From: Vicugna vicugna
Lineage: Eukaryota
Reading direction: 5' to 3'
Assembly (NCBI GenBank): GCA_013265495.1
Contig: MU058138.1
Location: 57,456 to 77,455 of the forward strand
Length of the DNA stretch: 20,000 bases
Both the position numbers and the translations under genes were made by a program. The notes under the pieces are model-generated. The model saw only the letters and a program-made list of their open reading frames with translations. It was not told the DNA's origin and searched no databases. Numbering within the stretch: the first letter of the stretch is position 1; each line of letters opens with the position of its first letter. Positions 20 to 20,000 of this stretch are shown here, piece after piece.

Positions 20-525
20 ATGACAGAAAATAAGAGGAAGCATCTACAGCAGATAATAAGGTAGTCAGAAAAGGTCTTTAGAAAATGTAACATTATACCT
101 GAGATCCAAAAGATGAAAAGCTGTAGAATAGATAAATAAGATTATACTGTATAGCACAGGGAAATATATACAAGATCTTATGGTAGTTCACAGAGGAAAA
201 AATGTGACAATGAATATATATATGTACATGTATAACTGAAAAATTGTGCTCTACATTGGAATTTGACACATTGTACAATGATTATAACTCAGTAAAAAAT
301 GTTAAAAAAAAAGACAAAAAGCAGCTACCAGGTGAAGCTCTGTTACTTGTGTTAAACTCCAACATTGGAAAGAGCTCAGCAAGTTCAAGACACTGAAAAG
401 TCATTGTGCCTGAAGAGAAATAAGAAAGGGAGTGGATAGAACAAACTGAGGTCAAAGAGGTGGACAAGATACGATCTCTGCAGAGCACTACAGGTCTTGG
501 TAAAGAATCTGGATTTCACTTAGTG
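20..525 (-). mobile_element. Ancient LINE-2 (L2) fragment, interrupted at 122-308 by a younger L1 3' fragment
   Basis: Purine-rich sequence (GAAAAGGTCTTTAGAAAATGTAACATT...CTGAGATCC, GGAAAGAGCTCAGCAAGTTCAAG, GAGGTCAAAGAGGTGGACAAG...GGTAAAGAATCTGGATTTCACTT) resembles the reverse complement of the recalled L2 3' region. Highly diverged; boundaries approximate. Confidence 0.65.
122..308 (+). mobile_element. 5'-truncated LINE-1 3'UTR insertion with A-tail and 14-bp TSD, same family as the full-length L1
   Basis: About 89% identical by eye to the reverse complement of ~3500-3690. Ends in GTTAAAAAAAAA. Flanked by AAAAGATGAAAAGC (108-121) and AAAAGACAAAAAGC (309-322), 12/14 match. Confidence 0.9.
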
Positions 526-697: not shown

Positions 698-1256
698 AAT
701 TTTATCACCTATTCCTCAGCAATGTATGTATGATACATAAAATCCCAATCAACAAAGCAAAACTGGAAAAAGAGATTTTTAATCCAAATATACGTTTAAG
801 ATTATAATAACAATAAGTTTTCCACAAATAATACAGGAAAAACATGGTAGACTTTATATTTCAGAGGAAGAAATAGAAAATTAGAGAACCAGACAAGATA
901 TGCCAGAGTATTAGAAAGGATCAAAAGAGAAATTGGAAAATAAATACTCTAAAATTCCTATTTTCCCAAAATGCTTTATTTTGCTTTGCAATTTCATAGG
1001 TAGTGAACAATTGCATTTTAACAAGAAACAAAACTGGTTCTGATAGTACTTTAACATTTGACTACCAAATTGGCAATAAAAACATCTAAATAGGCTATTT
1101 TTATAAGGATGATTTCCTGTTAAGGTCTCCTCAGATTGCCTAATGCCAACATCCACATACCTTTGACAAATAGTGTGCCCTTGGCCCTGAAAATTAGGAA
1201 TTATCTTCTTTAACTTGTAACCATTTGAGGGATAAAGTTATTTTACATTGTTTTCA

Positions 1257-2170
1257 TTATTTCCCTGATGAAGTCATCTTTTGACTCAGAACTTCTCCAT
1301 AGCATTTTTAACCTCTGCACATCTTAGGGTATAATAGAGTTTAACACAAAATTTAGCACAGTATAAAATATAGCCATGGCTTAATTAATTGAAAAAGTGA
1401 TAATTTGAGGCAGATACATACATGTGCAAGGTACAAAGAATAAAATGACCAGAGCGATGTGAGAGGCTTAGGTGGAGTGTACTTTGCACCTACCATCCAA
1501 GCTATGAGATTTCAAAGTGTATAGGGTCATGATATAGGAGACCATCAAAAGGAGTAAGTTTAACAGAAAGATGACCCCTTTGTTGGTAGCAACAAAGAGA
1601 CAAAAATATGACTGTCCATGTTGATAAGTTTCAACAGAGTTCATGTCACACACAAAGTGATCTATGTCACTGGGGCCAAAAAAGGGTGCCAGACTGTGAA
1701 GAGGATTTAAACTGCTGGATGGATAAGTCTCCAGCCCAGGTGACTCCCAGAGATGACCACATCTCTATCAGCTTTTGGTGGTCAGGTAGTACAGATGGAC
1801 ACATAGAAGTCATAGGTCATACCCATCAGCAGAATGATGTCTTTATTCCATTGTGTGTTCTTGCCTCCTTTGTCGAAGTTTAGTTGACCAAAAATTTGTG
1901 GGTTCATTTCTGGGATCTCTATTCTGTTCCATTAGGCCATATATCTGTTTTTGTACCAGTACCATACTGTTTTGATTACTGTAGCTCTATAGTATTGTAT
2001 GAAGTCTGGGAGAGTTATTCCTCCAGCCTCTTTCAGCAGCACCAAAAGATGTTCAGCAAAGTTTTAAGTCATGCACTTACTAAAACATGGTTTTCCTTAC
2101 AGTAAGAGTGTCAGGACCTTGACGGGGTCAGGGAAGAAGAACAGCCACTATCTATGACGAATAAGTAACA
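1257..2170 (-). pseudogene. Olfactory receptor pseudogene, family 4 (OR4C/OR4A-like), lacking the N-terminus and TM1, interrupted by an L1-derived insert at 1842-2034
   Basis: Minus-strand translation across frameshifts gives OR motifs in order: CMT*NFAEHL-GAA|DIILLMGMTYDFYVSIC (MAYDRYVAIC), IDHFVCD, LFVATNKGVIFLLNLLLLMVSYIMTLYTLKSHSLDGRCKVHST*ASHIALVILFFVPC (KALSTCxSH), AMAIFYT, TLRCAEVKNAMEK (YTLRNxEVKNAM). Probable stop TAA at 1257-1259. Multiple stops and frameshifts. Confidence 0.92.
1842..2034 (-). mobile_element. 193-bp internal L1 ORF2 piece, near-identical copy of 4857-5049
   Basis: 1838-2034 vs 4853-5049 match at 195/197, with mismatches at 1915/4930 and 1939/4954. No poly(A) and no 3'UTR. 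Confidence 0.97.
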
Positions 2171-2174
2171 CATA

Positions 2175-3200
2175 AACAACATGTAAAGCATTACCAAAGA
2201 GTGTACAAAGGACTAAATGAAAACACCTAACTCTCTTCATGGAGAGGAATTCTCAAATCTCTAAAGATATAAACCCTTCCTAAATTAGTCATCCTAAATA
2301 AAAATGCATTGAAAAATAACAGAAATTTTTGTGACTAGCCTAGCTTATTATAAATTTAATTTGATGTCCTAAATTTGCAAGAACAGACATAATGCTGGAA
2401 AAGAAGAGTAATGAGGGAGTGTTAGACTTATTATTCTAAATGTATTCTAGATGAATTGCAACTATATCATAAATTAAATGGTACATGACTGAAAAGACCA
2501 ATGGAACTGAGTCCTGAACTGCATTCAAATATTTATGGAAATTTAGAATACAGTAATATGAGGATTTCAAATTAGTGGTGAAAGATAATTAAGCAACTAC
2601 AAAAAAAGGTCATTTAGAAAACAATAAAACACAATCTTCTTTAACTATATATGAAAATGAATTATAATTTCTTTAATGAACCTTCTTGTCATATACCAAA
2701 AAATATTCACTGGTTGTTGAGAATGGGGACAAGCTGATAGTCTCAGACTATGGGCAGAATTGTAGGTACAACTTCATGAATGGCATTTTGGCAATAACTA
2801 TGAATATCAACATTTAAATACATATTCCCTGTTGACCCAAAAGTTCTACTTATAGCAACTGACATTTCTAGGAACACATACTTGAGAAGATATATACTTA
2901 TTGCAGAATTATGTATCATAGAAAAAGATTGAAATGACATGAAAAGTACTGGGTGCATTAATTCAGGAATATTATAAGGGAACATCACATATTATACAAA
3001 TAACTGAGCATGAGTTAGATCTATATAGAGTGGTATGAAAAGATGCTCAAGATGTTGAATAGTAAAATGTAAGTGTTTACATGCAGGCATATATCCACAT
3101 ACACATATGTAAATATGCTTATATGTGCAAAGATTGATACTTGAAACATCTTAAGAAAGAGGCTTTGCACTAACTCTAGGTAAGAACACTGGGAAACACT
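2175..3200 (+). mobile_element. Ancient L1 (L1ME-type) ORF2 C-terminal region and 3' end, heavily decayed
   Basis: Degenerate L1 ORF2 landmarks in order (TAAAGCATTACC, CTTCATGGAGAGGAATTCTCAA, GACCAATGGAAC, ATATTTATGGAAATTTAG, GGTACAACTTC...TTTTGGCAATA, TTGACCCAAAAGTTCTACTT), then an L1ME-like 3'UTR (GAGTTAGATCTATAT...GATGCTCAAGATGTTG). Confidence 0.7.
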
Positions 3201-3279
3201 AAAAAGGATGAAAAAGAAGTTTGGTTTGGTTTGGTTTTGCAGGATGTTTTACTAAGCTTTCTAGGCAAAAATCATCCCA

Positions 3280-3405
3280 ATTTTATATGAATACTTTCTC
3301 AACTCTTTTTGTAACTTGCCTTTTTACTTTCTTTCAGGTGTTTTTGTTGAACAAAAGTTCTTACTATGGTCAAATTTATCATTCTTTCCTTCTTAGTTTG
3401 TTTAG
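3280..3405 (-). mobile_element. Old L1M fragment
   Basis: GAATACTTTCTC...CTTGCCTTTTTACTTTCTTTCAGGTGTTTTTGTTGAACAAAAGTTCTT...GTCAAATTTATC resembles the reverse complement of late L1 ORF2. Confidence 0.55.
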
Positions 3406-3822
3406 AAATATTTTGAAAGGAGATTTATTTTTCACTTGCACCATTTCATATGGTTCCTATTTTTATAATCATTATTATTGTATTTTCTTTTTCATTTATT
3501 TTTTAAACATTTTTATTGAGTTATAGTCATTTTACAATGTTGTGTCAAATTCCAGTGTAGAGCACAATTTTACAGTTATATGTGAACATACATATATTCA
3601 TTGACACATATTTTTCACTGTGAGCTACCACAAGATCTTGTATATATTTCCCTGTGCTATACAGCATAGTCTTGTTTATCTATTCTACATATGCCTATCA
3701 ATATATACAAATTTTGGACTCATAGTCTATCCCTTTTTACCCCCCTCCTAGGCAACTACAAGTTTGTATTCTATACCTATGTGTCTTTATGTTTTGCATT
3801 TATGTTCTTCTTCTTTTTTTTT

Positions 3823-6800
3823 TAAGATTCCACATATGAGCAATATCATATGGTATTTTTTTTCTTTTTCTGGCTTACTTCATTTAGAATGACATATTCC
3901 ATGAATAACCATGTTGCTGCAAATGGCATAATGTTGTTGGGTTTTATGGCTGAATAGTATTCCATTGAATAAACATACCACAACTTCTTAATCCAGTCAT
4001 CTGTTGATTGACATTAAGGCTGTTTCCATGTCTTGGCTATTGTAAATAGTGCTGCTATGAACATTGGGGTGCAGGTGTCATCCTGAAGTAGGGTTCCTTC
4101 TGGATATATGCCCAGGGTCAGTATTACTGGGTCATATGGTAAGTCTATTCCTAGCCTTTTGAGGAATCTCCATACTGTTTTCCACAGTGGCTGCACCAAA
4201 CTGCATTCCCACCAGCAGTGTAGGAGTGTTCCCCTTTCTCCACAGCATCCCCAGAATTTGTCATTTGTGGACTTTTGAATGATGGCCATTCTGACTGGTG
4301 TGAGGTGATGCCTTCTTCTAATTTTGATTTACATTTCTCTGATAATTAGTGATATTGAGCATTTTTTCGTGTGAGTATTGATCATTTGTATTTCTTCTTT
4401 GGAAAGTTTCTTGTTTAGGTCTTCTGCCCATTTTTGGATTGGGTTGTTTACTTTTTTTTTATTAAGTCATATGGACTGCTTATATATTCTGGAGATCAAG
4501 CCTTTGTCGGTTTCATTTGCAAAAATTTTCTCCCATTCTATAGGTTGTCATTTTGTTTTACTTATGGTTTCCTTTGCTGTGCAGAAGCTTGTAAGTTTCA
4601 TTAGGTCACATTTGTTTATTCTTGCTTTTATTTCTATTGCTAGAGTAGACTGTTCTAGGAGAACATTTTTGAAATGTATGTCAGATAATGTTTTGCCTAT
4701 ATTTTCTTTTAGGAGGTTTATTGTATCTTGTCTTATGTTTAAGTCTTTGATCCATTTTGAGTTTATTTTTGTGTATGGTGTAAGGGAGTGTTCTGGCTTC
4801 ATTGATTTACATGCTGCTGTCCAGTTTCCCCAAAACCATTTGCTGAGGAGACTGTCTTTATTCCATTGTGTGTTCTTGCCTCCTTTGTCGAAGTTTAGTT
4901 GACCAAAAATTTGTGGGTTCATTTCTGGGCTCTCTATTCTGTTCCATTAGGCCTTATATCTGTTTTTGTACCAGTACCATACTGTTTTGATTACTGTAGC
5001 TCTATAGTATTGTATGAAGTCTGGGAGAGTTATTCCTCCAGCCTCTTTCTTTTTCCTCAGTAATATTTTGGCAATTCTAGGTTTTTTATGTTTCCACATA
5101 AATTTCATTATGGTTTGTTCTAGTTCTGTGAAATATGTCCTGGGTAATTTGGTAGGGATTGCATTAAATCTGTAGATTGTCTTGGGCAGTATGACCATTT
5201 TGACAATATTGATTCTTCCAATCTAGGAGTGTGATATGTCTCCATTTTTTTAAGTCTTCTTTAATTTCTTTAATCAGTGTTTTATAGTTTTCCATGTATA
5301 AGTCTTTCACCTCCTTGGTTAGATTTATTTCTAGGTGTTTTATTAATTTGGGTGCTATTTTGAAAGGGATTGTTTCTTTACTTTCTTTTTCTGAGTTAGT
5401 GTAATGCAACTGATGTTTGAACTTTATTCTTGTAATCTGCTACATTGCTGAATTCTTCAATCAGCTCTAGTAGTTTTTGTGTGGAGCTTTTAGGGTTTTC
5501 TAGATTTAGTAACATGTCATTGGCATATGGTGACACTTTCATCTCTAGTTTTCAAATTTGGATCCCATTTATTTCTCTCTCTTGCCTGATTGCTGTGGCT
5601 AGGACTTCCAAGACTATGTTGAATAGCAGTGGTGATAGTGGGCATCCTTGTCTTGTTCCAGATTTTAGTGGGAAGCTTTTGAGTTTTTCACTGTTGAGTA
5701 CTCTGCTGGCTGTAGGTTTGTCATATATAGCTTTTATGATGTTGAGATATGTTCCCTCTATACCCACTTTGGTGAGAGTTTTTAATCATAAGTGGGTGTT
5801 GACTTTTATCAAATGCTTTTTCTACATCTATTGAGATGATCATGTGATTTTGTCCTTTCTCTTGTTGATGTGATGTATTACATTGATTGATTTGCATATG
5901 TTGAACCACCCTTATGTCCCTGGGATGAACCCCACTTGGTCATGATGTATAATCTTTTTTATGTGTTGTAGGATTCTATTTGCTAATATTTTGGTGAGGA
6001 TTTTGGCATCTATGTTCATCAGTGATATTGACCTATAATTCTCTTTTTTGGTAGTGTCTTTGCCTGGTTTTGGTATCAGGGCGATGGTGGCTTCATAGAA
6101 TGAGTTTGGGAGTATTCCATCCTTTTCAATCTTCTGGAAGAGTTTGAGAAGGACTGGTATGAGTTCTTCTTTGTATGTTTTGTAGAATTCCCCAGTAAAG
6201 CTGTCTGGTCCTGGACTTTTATTTGTAGCGAGGCTTTTTATTGCTAATTCAACTTTATTTCTAGTGATTGGTTTGTTCAAGTGGTCAGTTTCTTCTTGAA
6301 TCAGTCTTGGTGGACTGTATGTTTCCAGAAATTTGTCCATGTCCTCTAGGTTATCCATTTTGGTCCGATATAGTTTTTCATAATATTCTCATATGATATT
6401 CTATATTTCTATGTTACTTGTAATTTTTTTCATTTTCCTTTCTTATTTTGCTTATTTGTGCTCCCTATTTTTTCTTCTTTGTGAGTTTGTCCAGAGGTTT
6501 GTCAATTTTATTTACTGTTTCAAAAAAACAGCTTTTGGTTTGATTGATATTTTCTATTGTTTTTTAATCTCTGTTTTATTTATTTCCTCCCTGATCTTTA
6601 TTATTTCCTTCCTTCTTCTGACTTTTGGGGGTTTTTTTGCTCTTCTTTTTCTAGTTCTTTAAGCTGTTGGGTTAGATTGTTTATTTGAGATCGTTCTTCT
6701 TTTTTGAGGAAAGCCTATATCACTATAAACTTCCCTCTTGGCACTGCCTTTGCTGTGGCCCATTAATTTTGTGTGGTTGTGTTTTCATTTTCATTTTCTC

Positions 6801-7617
6801 AAGTTATTTTGTTAATTTCAATTTTGATTTCCTCATTGAACCATTGGCTTTTTAATAGCATGTTGTTTAATCTCCATGCTTTCCTTTTTTTGTCCTTTGT
6901 TTCTCTGTAGTTGATTTCTACTTTCATGGCATTGTGATCAGTAAAGACGCTTGAGATAATTTCTAGCTTCTTAAAATTGTTGAGGCTTCTTTTGTGCCCA
7001 AGTACATGATCAATCCTAGAAAATGTTCCATGTGTACTTGAAAAGAATGTGTATCCTATTTTTGGGAGCTGTGATGCTCTGAAAATATCCACCAACTCTA
7101 ATTTTTCTATTGTATCATTTAATTTCTCTGTTGCCTTATTTAGTTTCTATCTGGAAGACCTATCTGGTGATGTCAATGTGGTCTTAAAATCTCCAACAAT
7201 GATTGTATTCCCATCAATTTCCCCTTTTATCTGTGTTAGTAATTTTTTTTATGAACTTAGGTGCTCCTATACTGGGTGCATATATATTAATGAGTATAAT
7301 ATCCTCATCTGTATTACTTCTTTAATCATTATAAAATGTCCTTCTCTCTTTCTTTATGTCCTTTCTTATAAGTCCATTTTGTCTGAAATCAGTACTGCAA
7401 CACCTGCTTTTTTTGCTTTTCCATTTACATGGAATATCCTTTTCCATCCTTTCACTCTCAATCTATATGTGTCCTTCTCCCTAAAGTGGGTCTCTTGTAT
7501 GCAGCATATTGAAGGTTCTTGCTTTATTATCCAGTCTACCACTCTATGTCTTTTGACTGGCACTTTTAGTCCATTAACATTTACAGTAATTAATGATAGA
7601 TGTGTGTTTATTGCCAT
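3823..7617 (-). pseudogene. ORF2: L1 ORF2 (APE endonuclease, reverse transcriptase, C-terminal Cys-rich domain), broken by many stops and frameshifts
   Basis: ORF-track fragments: MAINTHLSLITVNVNGL...CCIQETH (EN), TFSRIDHVLGH...[17 protein letters not shown]...[32 protein letters not shown] (RT), YAND at 5527-5516 in place of the catalytic (F/Y)[17 protein letters not shown]. Ends near YHMILLICGI at ~3823. Confidence 0.97.
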
Positions 7618-8014
7618 TTTGAACTTATTTTTGCAGTTGACTTGGTATTTCCTCTCTGTTCCTTTCTTCTTCCTTTTGTGGTTTGGTAATTTTTCTTTGT
7701 ATTATCTTGGACTTTATTTAGTTTTTGTGACTCATATGTAAGTTTTTGGCTTGTGGTTTCCCTTTTGTGCATCTATTAACCCATCACTATAACTGTTTTT
7801 ATTAAGCAGATAGTAATATAATCTCAAACTCATCCTACCGACAACAAAAAACTTAAAAAAGCAAAATAATTACTCTATATTTTCTTGCTTCCCTCTCCAC
7901 TCTTAATGATTTAGATGTCTTCTACAATTTTGTGTTTATTCTATTTGGAATTCATGATAGTTATCACCTTTCCAGTTATGGATTTCTCATTTCTGTAGCA
8001 TCCTGCTTCTTTTC

Positions 8015-8271
8015 TATTTAGAGTAGACTTGTCAATATTTCCTTTTAGCATGGGTTTAGTGTTGCTGAACTCTTGTTGCTGTTTCTTGTCTGTAAAGTTC
8101 TTTACCTCTACTTCTATCCTAAAGAATAGCCTTGCTGGATAAAGATATTTAGAGTAGACTTGTCAATATTTCTTTTAGCATGGGTTTAGTGTTGCTAAAC
8201 TCTTGATGTTTCTTGTCTGTAAAATTCTTTACCTCTACTTCTATCCTAAAGGATAGCCTTGCTGGATAAAG
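8015..8271. repeat. Direct tandem duplication (~130 bp + 126 bp) of the ORF1 3' end
   Basis: 8015-8144 and 8146-8271 both read TATTTAGAGTAGACTTGTCAATATTT...GCCTTGCTGGATAAAG. About 4 substitutions and 2 small indels between copies. Confidence 0.95.
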
Positions 8272-9040
8272 TATCCTAGGCTGTCTCTTTTTTTCATTCA
8301 GGGCTGTGACTATATCTTGCCACTCCCTTCTGGCCTGTAGTGTTTGTGTAGAGAAATCAGCTGAGAGCCTTATGGGGGTTCTTTTGTAACTCACTCTTTG
8401 CTTTTCTCCTGCTACCTTTAGGATCATTTCTTTATCCTTGACTCTGGCCATCTTGATTATGATATGTCTTGGATGGTGTGAGTTGAGTTCTTCCTGTTTG
8501 GGACCCTCTGAGCTTCCTGTACTTGGATATCTGATTCCTTCTTTAAGTTTGGGTAGTTTTCCGTCATGATTTCTTCAAATACCTTTTCAATTCCCTTTGT
8601 TCTTTTATCCCATTTTGGAACCCCTATTATGTGTAGATTTGCATGCTTTATATTATCCCATAGGTCCCTTATATTATTTTCATTATTTTTAATTTGTTTT
8701 TCTCTCAGCTGTTCTGATTGATTGCTTTCTGCCATCCTGTCTTCTAGGTCACTTATTTGTTCCTTTGCATTATCTAGCTTGTTTTGTACAGCCTTTAGAT
8801 CAGAGTTCATCTCTGCAAATGAGTTTACCAATTCTACTTGACTCTTCTTTATAGCTTCAATTTCATTTTTGACATATTTTATATCTCTAAACACTATCTC
8901 TCCTTCAATACTTTGATCATTCCTTTTTTGAAATCTTCATCTAGTAGGCTATCAATGTCTATTTCATTGATTGTTCTTTCAGGGGATTTCTCTTGTTCTT
9001 TTAATTGGGAGTGGTTCCTCTGCTTCTTCATATTGCTCAT
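8149..9040 (-). pseudogene. ORF1: L1 ORF1 (coiled-coil, RRM and CTD RNA-binding protein), disrupted
   Basis: ATG at 9040 (MSNMKKQRNHSQLKEQEKSPE...), coiled-coil ...QISDLEDR...LWDNIKHANLHIIGVP...ENYPNL...IQVQEAQRVP, then PIRLSADFS...ARREW...PRILYPARLSF. Stop at 8151-8149. Confidence 0.95.
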
Positions 9041-10790
9041 ATCTCTCTGGCACTGTGGCTTATAGAGTATCAGTTATGTATTGTGGTCCTTAAGGAGTTT
9101 ATTTATTTATTTATCTAAAGCCTATGCAGGAATAAAACTTTTAAAAAGAGAGAGATTTTTAAAAGAAGGGAGGAAAAAAGTTTAAAAACAGTATATAATC
9201 AATAATAGAAGAGCAACTTGAAGCAGAATAGCAATTGAGTTGATATGTTTTTTAAAACATTAAAAAAGGAGAAAAAAATAAAAAAACAATAATTGAAACC
9301 TGTTTATAATCTATAACAGGAGATCAAAACCAAGAGAAATAAAAATGAAATGAGGTGGCTTTTAAAAATAATAATAATAAAAAATTTGAAAAGAAAAATT
9401 TAAAGGAATTAAAAATGTAGTTATATAGAATTGTTTAAAATGTAAAGATTAAAAAGGCAATAAAAAGTAGAACAGATGAAATAAAAGGTTAAAAAAATGT
9501 GTTCTCCTGGAGACCATGTGCTCTTGATGATTTTATTGATAGGTCTTTCTGTCTTCACCCTGTTTCTCAGACTCAGCTTGCTGTTTCCAGAGGCCCTCCA
9601 TTGGCACTCTCATCTGTGCTGCTTCCAGTGCCTGACGGCAAAGATCACACCCCCTCCCAACACTGGGTCAGGTGCTGCGCTCCTACATGGTGGGCTGGCA
9701 GGTCACTCCCCCTCCTGGTGCTGCAGTCAGATGCTGTGCTCGGGCGAGATAGGCAAGCAGAACATGCTCCCTCCCAGCACCATGGTGAGGTGCTGTGTCC
9801 CTGCTTGGAAGGCAGGTGGCCGCCTGCCCTCTCCAGGTGCTGGTTGCTCCCATGCTGTATGCAGCTGCCTGCTCCATCTGGGGTCAGTGCTCTGTAGGTG
9901 GGCTCAGGGAAGACCATGAACAGCCCCTCCCCTGCTCTTTGCCAAAACCCTGCTCCTTGTTTGTCGTGGTGGTGCAAGTTCTCTGAGGTACCAGGGCAGG
10001 AAGATCCTATCTTCCCCAGGCTGTAGACAGATCTCAGTCCTGCCTAGGAGGTTGCAGAGCCTCCAGGTGCAGATTCAGGTCTAGGTCCAGCCCCCGCCCC
10101 CGACAGGGCACTGCACCCAGGAGAATATGGTGGCTGTGGCAGCTGTGGCTGTGCCTCTCTTCTCATGAGAAGCACCAGTAATGGTGCCGCAGGGCTAAAG
10201 AGACAAAGACTATTGTGCCCCTTCCCACAGGGCACATCAGCAGTATCACTTTGCTTTTTTTGTTTTGTAATTTATGGAGGGCCCAGGTTTTTCTGCTCTG
10301 TATCCCCTCCCAGACATGGCATGCAGCACTTTGCTGTCCCCCAGGGATACCTCAGTTCAGCCACCCCAGTCTTCTGCCTGGCTCGGGCAGCCTGGACTTT
10401 CCCCCAGCTTCTGGCTCACATCTCAGGCTGGGTGTCACAGGGACCCTTTGTGCCCATTTAACTTAATCCTGTCAGCCAATGGGTGCTCTGTACAGACCCA
10501 AGCCTAGGAGGCTCCCTCTCTGTCCTGCTGGCCTCTCCGTTGGAGAGGGGGAGACCTAGCAAATGAGCACTAGTCCTCCTTTGCCACTTTTTCCCTGCAG
10601 GACCAGATCCACATTGTTTTTCTTTTTCTTTTTTCCTTTTCTCCTACCAGATTTGTGGTGTCTTTGCCTTTTGAAGAGGGCGATGTTATGTTTGAGTTCA
10701 GCAGGTAGGTGGGTCCATGGATGTGACTACTAGTGTATTTGTGGGAAAGGGTGAGCTAAAAGCGTCCTTCTACTCCACCATCTTGACCCC
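9041..10790 (-). promoter_or_regulatory. L1 5'UTR / internal Pol II promoter region (GC-rich ~9495-10790, T-rich ~9090-9495), with a YY1-like site at 10775-10784
   Basis: Lies upstream of ORF1. AAGATGGTGG a few bases from the 5' end resembles the L1 YY1 site AAGATGGCGG with CpG decay. GC-rich but CpG-depleted. Confidence 0.8.
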
Positions 10791-11174
10791 TTGCTAATTA
10801 TGCTTTCTTTTATACACTCTATGTTTCAGTTAGAAGCCCTAATTTGCCAAAATGCTAATCATTATATTTAAAATCTTGACATATCCATGAAGTTCTAAAT
10901 TATCTTATTCCTATCATTTTCATATTTTCATTTTATCTTTTGCCCTTGCTTAGTAACTCTTCTGTGCCATGATGGACTCATGGACATATAGAGTCTTTTA
11001 TAGAATAGCTTATCAAAGTATTAATGGTAAATGATAATGTTCTTTGTAAGACTTACAATCTGTTGTGCTCCATATTTTTGCAATTTTGAAAACTATCAAA
11101 ATCTTGTGATAGTTTAAATGCTCAACCTCACTTTCAGTAGTTGTCTCATCATAGAGTGAAAGCAGAGAGTGCAA

Positions 11175-11224: not shown

Positions 11225-11840
11225 GTCCATCCATCATAATTTACCTATGTGCTTTTGTAGTGAGGGAGAGCAGATTGCCAACAATTTGTCTTCACTACAA
11301 AGAACTCACTGTCAAAAATTTTCTAGGGTATTTTCCTATAGAAAAATATTTTAAGTCTGAGGGTATGCTTATATTTCATTTGACCAAGTTTTTTCAGATT
11401 GCTTTCCATAATGGCTGCACCAGTGCACACTCCTATTATTTGTGTATGGGGATCCCATACCCTCACTTCCTAGTGAATATTGGTATTTTCCTAATAAATT
11501 TTTAGCCAGGAAATCAGGTGTACTAGGTGATATATGATTTTATTTGTTTCCTTTCCCTTTAATTACAAATATATTTGATCATTATTTAATGTTCTCAGAA
11601 TTTTGAGATTCTATGGTTTTGTAAATTGTTTGTTAACTTTTTGGTGAAAGTTTTTATTGAGTTGATTGTTGATGGTATTTGTTTATCCAAGATTTGAATC
11701 TCTTGTCAGTTTTTGACTTAACAAATCTTTCTTACATTGTACCATCTACTAATTTTGTCTAAGATACCCTTTATACAATGAAATCTTTAAATTTAAAATA
11801 ACAATTTATCTTTTTTGCCTTACAGTTTGTTCTTTTGAAA
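11225..11840 (-). mobile_element. Ancient L1M/L1ME fragment
   Basis: TTTCTAGGGTAT...GAGGGTATGC...CAGATTGCTTTCCATAATGGCTGCACCAGT...ACACTCC and TTTTATTTG...TTTCCCTTTAATTAC resemble the reverse complement of the L1 ORF2 C-terminus. Confidence 0.7.
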
Positions 11841-12939: not shown

Positions 12940-14045
12940 CAAGATCAATGCAATTTCAGTGAAATGCTTGAGAGAATTTCATGTACACCTTCAAAACTTA
13001 TAAAACTTATATGGAAAAGATAAGAGCTAAACATAGCTAAGAGAATTTCAGTGGATAAAAAGGGAGAATTTGTCCTTTCAGAAATCAGAACTAATTATAA
13101 AGCAACAATAATAGAGACAGTGTGGTATTGGTGTGAGGAGAGACAAGCAGGTCAATGGAACTGTGAGAAAGATCAGAAACAGGCTCACAAGTCACTGAAG
13201 CTTCAAGTATGAAAACAGTAGCATGCATAACAATGAAAAATGGCCCATTAAACTACTGTGCTATAAATGCTTGTGGGTATGAAATGTTATGTTGTATTTC
13301 TACTTTACATTTTATGAATCCTAAATGACTAAATTTAAATTATAAAGTTGTAAGATTAAAGCATAGCATAATATATATGACTTAGTTACGAAGTAAAAAA
13401 TTTAAATAAGACTTAAGTGCATAAAATGTAAAACACTGAAAATTCAACTTTAAATTAAAATTACCAACATTATAAAAAAGAAAAGATTAGATACTGACTG
13501 GGAATTTACTCAGATGAATTTGTTTGCAACACATATAAATGACAAGCAATCAGTATCCAGCATGTTTAAATAATTTCTATGAATTTCCCCAAGGGAAAAA
13601 TTCCCAAAAGACATAATCAGAACACTTATAGAAGGAAAATCTTAAATAGTCAATAGAAATATGGATATATATATACACAGCTCACTAATAAGGCAATGTA
13701 TTAACATTGCATGGAAATACAATTTTATAGTCCACAGCCTCTAAAATGCAAACTTTAGGTGAGAATGTGGACTCACTTTCTTTTTTGGAGAAATAAATTT
13801 GCATATTCATGTTGGGGACAAATTTGGAAATATTAGTAAAGTTAAACATTTATGTCCCTGGGTCCAGAATGTTTACTGTAGGGATATATTCTAAATTAAT
13901 TTTTGACCATGTAAACAAGGACATGTACACACATTTACATACACATGTAAATATATGTATGAATATGTGTATGTGTAAATATACTTATATACACACAAGA
14001 AGAGCCATAGCAGCATCTTTGAATATAGTAAAATATAAACTATTA
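12940..14045 (+). mobile_element. Ancient L1ME-type ORF2 C-terminal part and 3' region
   Basis: TCAATGCAATTTCAGTGAAAT, TATAAAGCAACAATAATAGAGACAGTGTGGTATTGG (YKATIIETVWYW), CAATGGAAC, TTTGCAACACATATAAATGACAA, GGTGAGAATGTGGA, CAAATTTGGAAATAT occur in L1 order. Confidence 0.75.
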
Positions 14046-16172: not shown

Positions 16173-16500
16173 AATTTCTTTGGATCTATTTCCTAGCAAA
16201 GGAAGCAAAAGGGAAAGTAAACAAATGGAACCTGATTAAATGTAAAGGCTTTTGCACAGCAAAGGATGCCATCAACAAAATGAAAAGATAATCTAGTGAA
16301 TGGGATAAAGTATTTTCAAATGACCCAACCAATGAGGGGAAAATAAATAGCTAGTATATATAAACAACTCATACAACTCAACATCAACCCCCCCAAAAAA
16401 TAAAACAAAAAAACAAAAAAGTTGCCCAAACAATATGATTAAAAAATGGGTAGAAGAACTGAACACACATTTTTCCAAAGAGGAAATTCAGATGGCCAAG
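16173..16500 (+). mobile_element. Internal L1 ORF2 fragment from a different subfamily than the full-length copy, without a 3' end
   Basis: AAACAAATGGAACCTGATTAAATGTAAAGGCTTTTGCACAGCAAAGG (NKWNLIKCKGFCTAK)...AAAAATGGGTAGAAGAACTGAACACACATTTTTCCAAAGAGGAAATTCAGATGGCCAA (KWVEELNTHFSKEEIQMA). L1 similarity stops abruptly there. Confidence 0.88.
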
Positions 16501-19431: not shown

Positions 19432-19810
19432 NNNNNNNNNNNNNNNNNNNNNNNNNNNNNNNNNNNNNNNNNNNNNNNNNNNNNNNNNNNNNNNNNNNNN
19501 NNNNNNNNNNNNNNNNNNNNNNNNNNNNNNNNNNNNNNNNNNNNNNNNNNNNNNNNNNNNNNNNNNNNNNNNNNNNNNNNNNNNNNNNNNNNNNNNNNNN
19601 NNNNNNNNNNNNNNNNNNNNNNNNNNNNNNNNNNNNNNNNNNNNNNNNNNNNNNNNNNNNNNNNNNNNNNNNNNNNNNNNNNNNNNNNNNNNNNNNNNNN
19701 NNNNNNNNNNNNNNNNNNNNNNNNNNNNNNNNNNNNNNNNNNNNNNNNNNNNNNNNNNNNNNNNNNNNNNNNNNNNNNNNNNNNNNNNNNNNNNNNNNNN
19801 NNNNNNNNNN
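19432..19810. other. Assembly gap (379 N)
   Basis: Run of N flanked by T12 on the left and A13 on the right. Confidence 1.
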
Positions 19811-20000
19811 NAAAAAAAAAAAAATACATGAATGGATGCACAGAATACTGGTTCACTCAAGACAGGAGTTTATATTTTTTGTTCCCCTCAGTCTTGACGG
19901 GGCCCAAACAGCTTTAAGGCAGCTGATGATTTATGAAACATATGTGATTATGCAACAGACCACTGCTACTCTGCACAATGCCGGAAGGGATGTCTCTCTT

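Follow-up and report, generated by a model that had tools for sequence, protein, structure and literature searches.

Micro-insertions at human deletion junctions are reportedly templated from 2-6 kb away, as Abyzov et al. are said to have found in 2015. Partial LINE-1 (L1) pieces occur among the templates of class 2 templated sequence insertion polymorphisms (TSIPs) in the published excerpt of that work (PMC5110952), and a templated insertion of 182 bp has been ascribed to the polymerase-theta pathway (PMC11707537). In the portion of their study of non-classical L1 insertions drawn on here, Sen et al. 2007 recorded local DNA templates at two loci and judged an SDSA-type route to be minor (PMC1920257). 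Such a route is expected there to minimise the loss of target DNA and to use mostly old, mutated L1 copies (PMC1920257), and both hold at the locus described below. For humans, 5,523 non-canonical mobile-element insertions have been catalogued, the accessible part of that report giving no assignment of donors (PMC12350158). Literature searches made without camelid terms found neither a report of this locus nor a survey of locally copied old-repeat fragments.

In this study, a self-BLAST of the window, which is the whole stretch of 20,000 bases analysed, yielded a single long near-identical pair of segments. The two segments, together with the L1 fragment that provides a measure of divergence, are as follows.

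1838..2034, minus strand: inserted L1 ORF2 fragment, consisting of 193 new bases and 4 bases of junction ambiguity
4853..5049, minus strand: donor segment in ORF2 of the neighbouring L1, retained whole (self-comparison)
122..321, plus strand: short separate L1 3'-end copy, used as a divergence yardstick only (BLAST and alignment)

Insert and donor are identical at 195 of 197 positions in the assembly, in direct orientation and at a spacing of 3015 bases, with mismatches at 1915 A / 4930 C and 1939 A / 4954 T, whereas the sequences flanking the insert and those flanking the donor segment are unrelated. The identity, orientation and distance from which the original prediction had started were thus reproduced. 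In the assembly, the insert reproduces, over its 193 bases, part of the adjacent dead L1 almost exactly. It is an internal ORF2 piece truncated at both ends, corresponding to approximately residues 868-932 of a full-length ORF2 homologue (tblastn piece 2060-1839 against P0085), and on the pre-insertion allele the donor lies 2822-3018 bases from the break. Only one other relic of this ORF2 region occurs in the window, an older one at about 13057-13245, which matches the insert at 115 of 196 positions. The L1 3' ends at 122-308 and 3503-3689 match in 165 of 190 alignment columns with 19 substitutions (86% over 203 by BLAST), in agreement with the difference of roughly 10% claimed for them; derived from one pair of 3' UTRs and not from ORF2, this figure is a rough yardstick for the L1 family. 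At 10% divergence, the probability of at most two mismatches in 197 positions is 2.5e-7, and at 5% it is 2.7e-3.

The donor segment lies in an L1 of nearly full length, which comprises the following features.

3487..10790, minus strand: near-full-length dead L1 holding the donor segment (3' end near 3490; 5' limit approximate, placed by eye)
7617-3861, minus strand: ORF2 of the donor L1, in four frames and with 26 stops in the tblastn pieces against intact ORF2
about 8936-8149, minus strand: ORF1 of the donor L1

Pfam domains RVT_1, Exo_endo_phos, Transposase_22 and Tnp_22_dsRBD are recognised in this element, but because its ORF2 contains 26 stops and three frame changes it cannot mobilise itself. 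A TAA codon is common to the insert (1934-1932) and the donor (4949-4947) at a position where 95 of 102 aligned L1 ORF2 homologues have Q, confirming the shared stop that had been proposed. Further odd residues common to both copies are A for D (D in 85 of 103 homologues), N for I (I in 74 of 80) and T for I (I in 57 of 72). The comparison was based on 117 aligned proteins out of 120, none identified as camelid, and no named camelid L1 ORF2 was among the matches listed. Because the homologues are non-camelid or of unstated source, the stop alone is certainly a private lesion of the donor copy, and the other shared residues could be family traits. The two mismatches are distributed over both copies: at the S to I site the homologues have S in 70 of 99 cases and I in 4, which makes the insert the changed copy, and at the second site they have I or M in 69 of 107, T in 29 and K in 4, which makes the donor the changed copy. 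The claim of one private change per copy was thus upheld, the homologues siding once with the donor and once with the insert.

Within the donor L1, a tandem duplication of about 127 bases (93% matches) is located at 8015-8271, near where ORF1 ends and the spacer that precedes ORF2; being more diverged, it is likely older than the templated insert. The element is bracketed by TAATCATTAT at 3466-3479 and 10856-10869 (10 bases exact, 12 of 14 in all), a possible target-site duplication of the donor L1, yet about 65 bases past its apparent 5' end. Older and more decayed L1 ORF2 relics are found at 11310-11456 (minus strand), 12955-13245 (plus strand) and 16193-16497 (plus strand).

The insert divides an olfactory receptor pseudogene into two parts.

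2035..2191, minus strand: OR4C12-like pseudogene, portion preceding the insert (residues 60-108 or so; compared with P0202 it has three frameshifts and one stop)
1277..1837, minus strand: OR4C12-like pseudogene, portion following the insert (reaching residue 303 or so; compared with P0143 it has six frameshifts and three stops)

Taken together, the two parts of the pseudogene contain about nine frameshifts and no fewer than four stops. Roughly the first 59 codons could not be located in 2035-2450, upstream of about 2190, and are lost or displaced. A first search for receptor homologues gave 0 of 21 candidates, and the 98-residue receptor frame alone had no Pfam match because it is frameshifted. 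When 120 receptors were scored on stop-free fragments excluding the junction, the three best were named OR4C12-like or OR4C12; the homologues belong to Pfam 7tm_4 and bear the source names OR4C12/4C46-like, and no camelid orthologue of the receptor was among the matches listed. Because the decay of the pseudogene far exceeds the 1% difference between insert and donor, the receptor gene was presumably already dead when the insert arrived, and the insert would not have been its killer.

The insert accounts for 193 of the 197 bases of the repeat; the other four are the target's own and can be drawn either from the left junction or from the right one. Depending on this choice, the ancestral codon at the site encodes glutamate (E parse) or aspartate (D parse).

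1838..1841, plus strand: TGTC, left junction, with one base (T) of microhomology in the E parse and four in the D parse
2031..2034, plus strand: TTTC, right junction, likely the target's own four bases, pairing with donor 5046-5049 (ancestral state judged from proteins)

Excision of 193 bases from 1838 or 1839 gives AAEIILL, and excision from any of 1840-1843 gives AADIILL. At the junction position, E occurs in 115 of 130 motifs among the 120 receptors and D in 14, and 13 of the 14 D cases form a GADVILL group with names from cats and a panda. Of the 25 best-scoring receptors, 24 have E; the motif is GAAEIILL in the top three, and each of the four AA-x-II motifs has the form AAEII. The E parse is preferred because the closest receptor homologues carry E. 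By this protein comparison, the target most likely had Glu, and the microhomology would amount to four bases at the right junction (TTTC, which on the minus strand is the Glu codon GAA plus one further base) and to a single base at the left. An ancestral GAA would make the insertion clean, whereas an ancestral GAG would imply the loss of one target base. The D parse is possible but less likely, as it requires a prior E-to-D change in a decaying gene. The original prediction had placed 4 bp of microhomology on the left and 2 bp on the right, which is more than a repeat only four bases longer than the insert can supply; the bases TC had been counted twice. It had also stated that removal of the insert restores the receptor frame A-A-D-I-I-L. 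Local continuity does exist, since the receptor codons run straight across the insertion site, and therefore the copy came back to its point of departure. The D, however, is disfavoured by the homologues, and the frame is broken again about 12 bases from the right junction (at about 2047), with many more frameshifts beyond.

A four-base overlap arose in 1.9% of simulated blunt random copies, which suggests microhomology but does not prove it. With a chance of 0.02 per junction and 0.04 for either, the microhomology exceeds random expectation only mildly. Both donor ends, TGTC and TTTC, resemble one and the same target 4-mer, with all 4 bases matching at one end and 3 of the 4 at the other. The four junction flanks lacked stable hairpins (-1.3 to -3.3 kcal/mol).

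Two features of canonical L1 retrotransposition by target-primed reverse transcription (TPRT) were looked for at the insert. The 3' end of an L1 with a poly(A) tail is absent, the internal ORF2 piece being followed directly by receptor sequence, and no target-site duplication of at least 5 bases adjoins the junctions, where nothing longer than 4 bases is repeated. The earlier observation that poly(A), 3' UTR and target-site duplication are all missing therefore stands. Insertion of an active element by TPRT was rejected, as its hallmarks are missing and the stop is shared with the donor. A 7-base direct repeat, TCAGCAG, is the longest in the vicinity of the junctions and brackets the site at 1826-1832 and 2033-2039. 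Both copies are native receptor coding sequence and the left copy does not adjoin the left junction, so it was discarded as a target-site duplication, although software could miscall it as one. An AATAAA motif on the minus strand (1847-1842) abuts the L1-3' end of the insert with no tail after it. Assignment to the class 1 TSIPs was accordingly dropped, because no tail follows the AATAAA and cleavage would fall 10-30 bases further on.

The divergence of insert and donor is 1.0% (95% interval 0.13-3.7%), calculated from two differences. With assumed substitution rates of 2.2 and 1.1e-9 per site per year, this corresponds to an age of 2.4-4.7 million years (0.3-17), and the insertion could be much younger if the differences are synthesis errors or allelic. 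The description of the insertion as recent depends on those two differences and their wide interval.

The explanation that we favour, with a probability somewhat above even, is a germline double-strand break that was repaired by microhomology-primed copying from the DNA of the neighbouring L1 and then by end joining, in an SDSA-like manner. Local copying at the DNA level, whether in break repair or by fork switching, is the likely origin when both are considered together. In the favoured course of events, a germline break would have occurred at the codon for the conserved Glu of the already dead receptor gene. One broken end would have paired by four bases (TTTC/GAAA) with the matching site in the L1, 3.0 kb away on the same chromosome or on its sister, and synthesis would have copied 193 bases of the donor before the new strand was released. 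This strand would then have been joined to the other end with one base of homology or none, and with none or one target base lost. In a mirror route, the left end would prime on the resected right arm and fall back to the break after 193 bases; the product would be identical, which makes the two routes indistinguishable. Each copy likely gained one substitution afterwards, or one of the two changes arose as an error of synthesis or is allelic. The insert is not expected to have a function.

The central claim of the original prediction, that this is a locally templated, tail-less copy and not a product of retrotransposition, fits everything in the window; its junction parse is probably wrong. 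Polymerase-theta end joining, one of the repair routes that it had named, in its characterised form makes insertions of 3-30 bp from a template typically less than 30 bp away, whereas here 193 bp came from 2.8 kb. The polymerase could have sealed the junction, yet it is an unconvincing candidate for the copying step. A point against break repair is distance: resection at human meiotic breaks is quoted as roughly 2 kb in the part of the literature consulted (PMC7615360), and the donor is 2.8-3.0 kb away.

A replicative out-and-back template switch of the FoSTeS/MMBIR type, in which a stalled strand jumps 2.8 kb, copies 193 bases and returns, needs no two-ended break. The resemblance of the target 4-mer to both donor ends would let one strand leave and return, and local copy-and-paste jumps have been described in cancer genomes, in the account available (PMC7025897). 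An exact return without loss or duplication would, however, be simpler with a held second end, inverted or multiple segments are absent, and stable hairpins are missing from the junctions. A template switch is thus unlikely, if worth keeping in mind.

It is distinctly improbable that the template was RNA, that is, a transcript of the dead L1, perhaps read through into the receptor, which was reverse-transcribed at a break by L1 ORF2p acting in trans. In favour are a donor of nearly full length that is directed at the site, an insert in the orientation of the donor, and an insert size in agreement with experimental templated insertions of 73-414 bp (median 191) that were traced to RNA in the cited excerpt (PMC5110952). 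In addition, the E-parse target TTTC/AG is one base from the endonuclease consensus TTTT/A. Priming at a TTTC nick should nevertheless place TTTC at the left junction, where TGTC is found, and there is no tail, untemplated base or splice scar. Published non-classical L1 insertions, moreover, came from young copies and lost target DNA in 18 of 21 cases, according to the section consulted (PMC1920257). A DNA and an RNA template would leave the same letters, as would break repair and fork switching.

Olfactory receptor clusters duplicate in tandem. A near-identical L1 elsewhere, in a segmental or tandem duplicate of the receptor cluster, might therefore have served as template, the closeness of the present donor to the site being incidental. 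Such tandem duplication and the two sites at which insert and donor differ are compatible with a twin donor, but a 99% match 3 kb away suffices as a source and the other relic in the window matches at only 115 of 196 positions, leaving this explanation a slim chance.

An artefact of assembly in a gapped scaffold was considered because the window contains a 380-base gap and because of the word content of sequencing runs. The region 1000-3300 is held by 19 of the 24 runs listed, from 8 studies under three organism labels that score alike, with shares of 0.90-0.93 of the sampled words; none of the 19 exceeds 0.93, and 109-110 of 2271 words (4.8%) depend on the insertion. These shares fit a filled site with five to seven substitutions or an empty site with two to four, so that the missing 7-10% of words is equally well explained by five to seven substitutions. 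False joins would, moreover, need long overlaps and not 1-4 bases, in addition to a return to the same codon, and each copy has a private change in the direction that the homologues predict. An artefact is for these reasons very improbable. The ceiling of 0.93 among the runs listed may reflect private differences of the window or repeat words lost from those contigs, and a 22-base flank pattern gave 0 matches in metagenome contigs. The gap itself, at 19432-19811, consists of 380 N between a T run and an A run, and four long 'inverted repeats' of the window proved to be artefacts of it.

Scarcely credible, even taken jointly, are two-step histories, either a 3-kb tandem duplication (2035-5049) of which a deletion then left just the last 193 bases, or an ordinary L1 insertion that was afterwards trimmed and underwent gene conversion by its neighbour: either yields a direct copy carrying the donor lesions, but the deletion must begin within 4 bases of the duplication edge, and the trimming must remove the tail and both duplicated targets without touching receptor codons.

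Templated insertions are an already known class, and the insert is not a new mobile element. Its functional effect is nil, host gene and donor both being long dead, and its value is that of a clean natural case in which an L1 fragment of endonuclease-independent appearance is traceable to an old neighbour. It also carries the warning that the age of a repeat does not date the arrival of a fragment. If an empty allele exists, the insertion could serve as a presence/absence marker among related species. Whether there is a hidden class of some size, in which tail-less fragments of old repeats annotated as ancient L1 are actually young DNA copies of a neighbour a few kilobases away, is doubtful. 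If it were real, shared lesions would name the donors, and a catalogue of such cases would show how far away, in which orientation and on which strand the templates of germline repair lie, thus serving as a fossil ruler of resection length. The same catalogue would settle the shares of DNA and RNA among 'non-classical L1 insertions', this branch being invisible to the young-L1 filter of Sen et al.

Compared with known systems, the locus shares a template a few kilobases away with the micro-insertions reportedly described by Abyzov et al. 2015, but those accompany deletions and there is none here. Like the non-classical L1 insertions in the part of that survey consulted (PMC1920257), it has a 3' truncation, no tail and no duplication. 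Those insertions depart clearly from the endonuclease consensus; here the corresponding target would be TTTC/AG in the E parse and TGTC/AG in the D parse, the choice resting on the putative ancestral codon. The survey took young L1s (<2% from consensus) and read them as captured mRNA (PMC1920257), whereas the present donor is old, with 26 stops and three frame changes; further differences from those insertions are that the template adjoins the site and that none or one base was lost. With class 2 TSIPs, as presented in the excerpt of Onozawa and Aplan 2016 (PMC5110952), the locus has in common a germline patch of about 200 bases, an intact donor, microhomology and the lack of tail and duplication. 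Their donors are distant and the template is argued to be RNA (PMC5110952), in contrast to a closest window match 2822-3018 bases off; they are also polymorphic, while the run word shares of 0.90-0.93 at this locus fit presence or absence of the insert.

Polymerase-theta insertions, in the sections of Carvajal-Garcia et al. 2020 consulted (PMC7165422), resemble the insert in that flanking DNA is copied as a direct repeat and the microhomology is short. When one end copies from the other, resected end, the geometry described is a flanking donor in direct orientation (PMC7165422). A short first and a longer second microhomology would fit the E parse if the left end primed first. The scale differs, however, with insertions of 3-30 bp, single tracts rarely above 10 bp and a template typically within 30 bp (PMC7165422), against 193 bp and 2.8 kb here. 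The local n-jumps and bridges of templated insertions in PCAWG, in the available description (PMC7025897), are likewise local copy-and-paste events that return to the host site, but they are somatic, usually larger and multi-part, unlike the present case. The insert is placed in the broad class of microhomology-primed templated insertions, SDSA-like or by template switch, with which it shares two short-homology junctions, a retained donor and the return to the point of departure.
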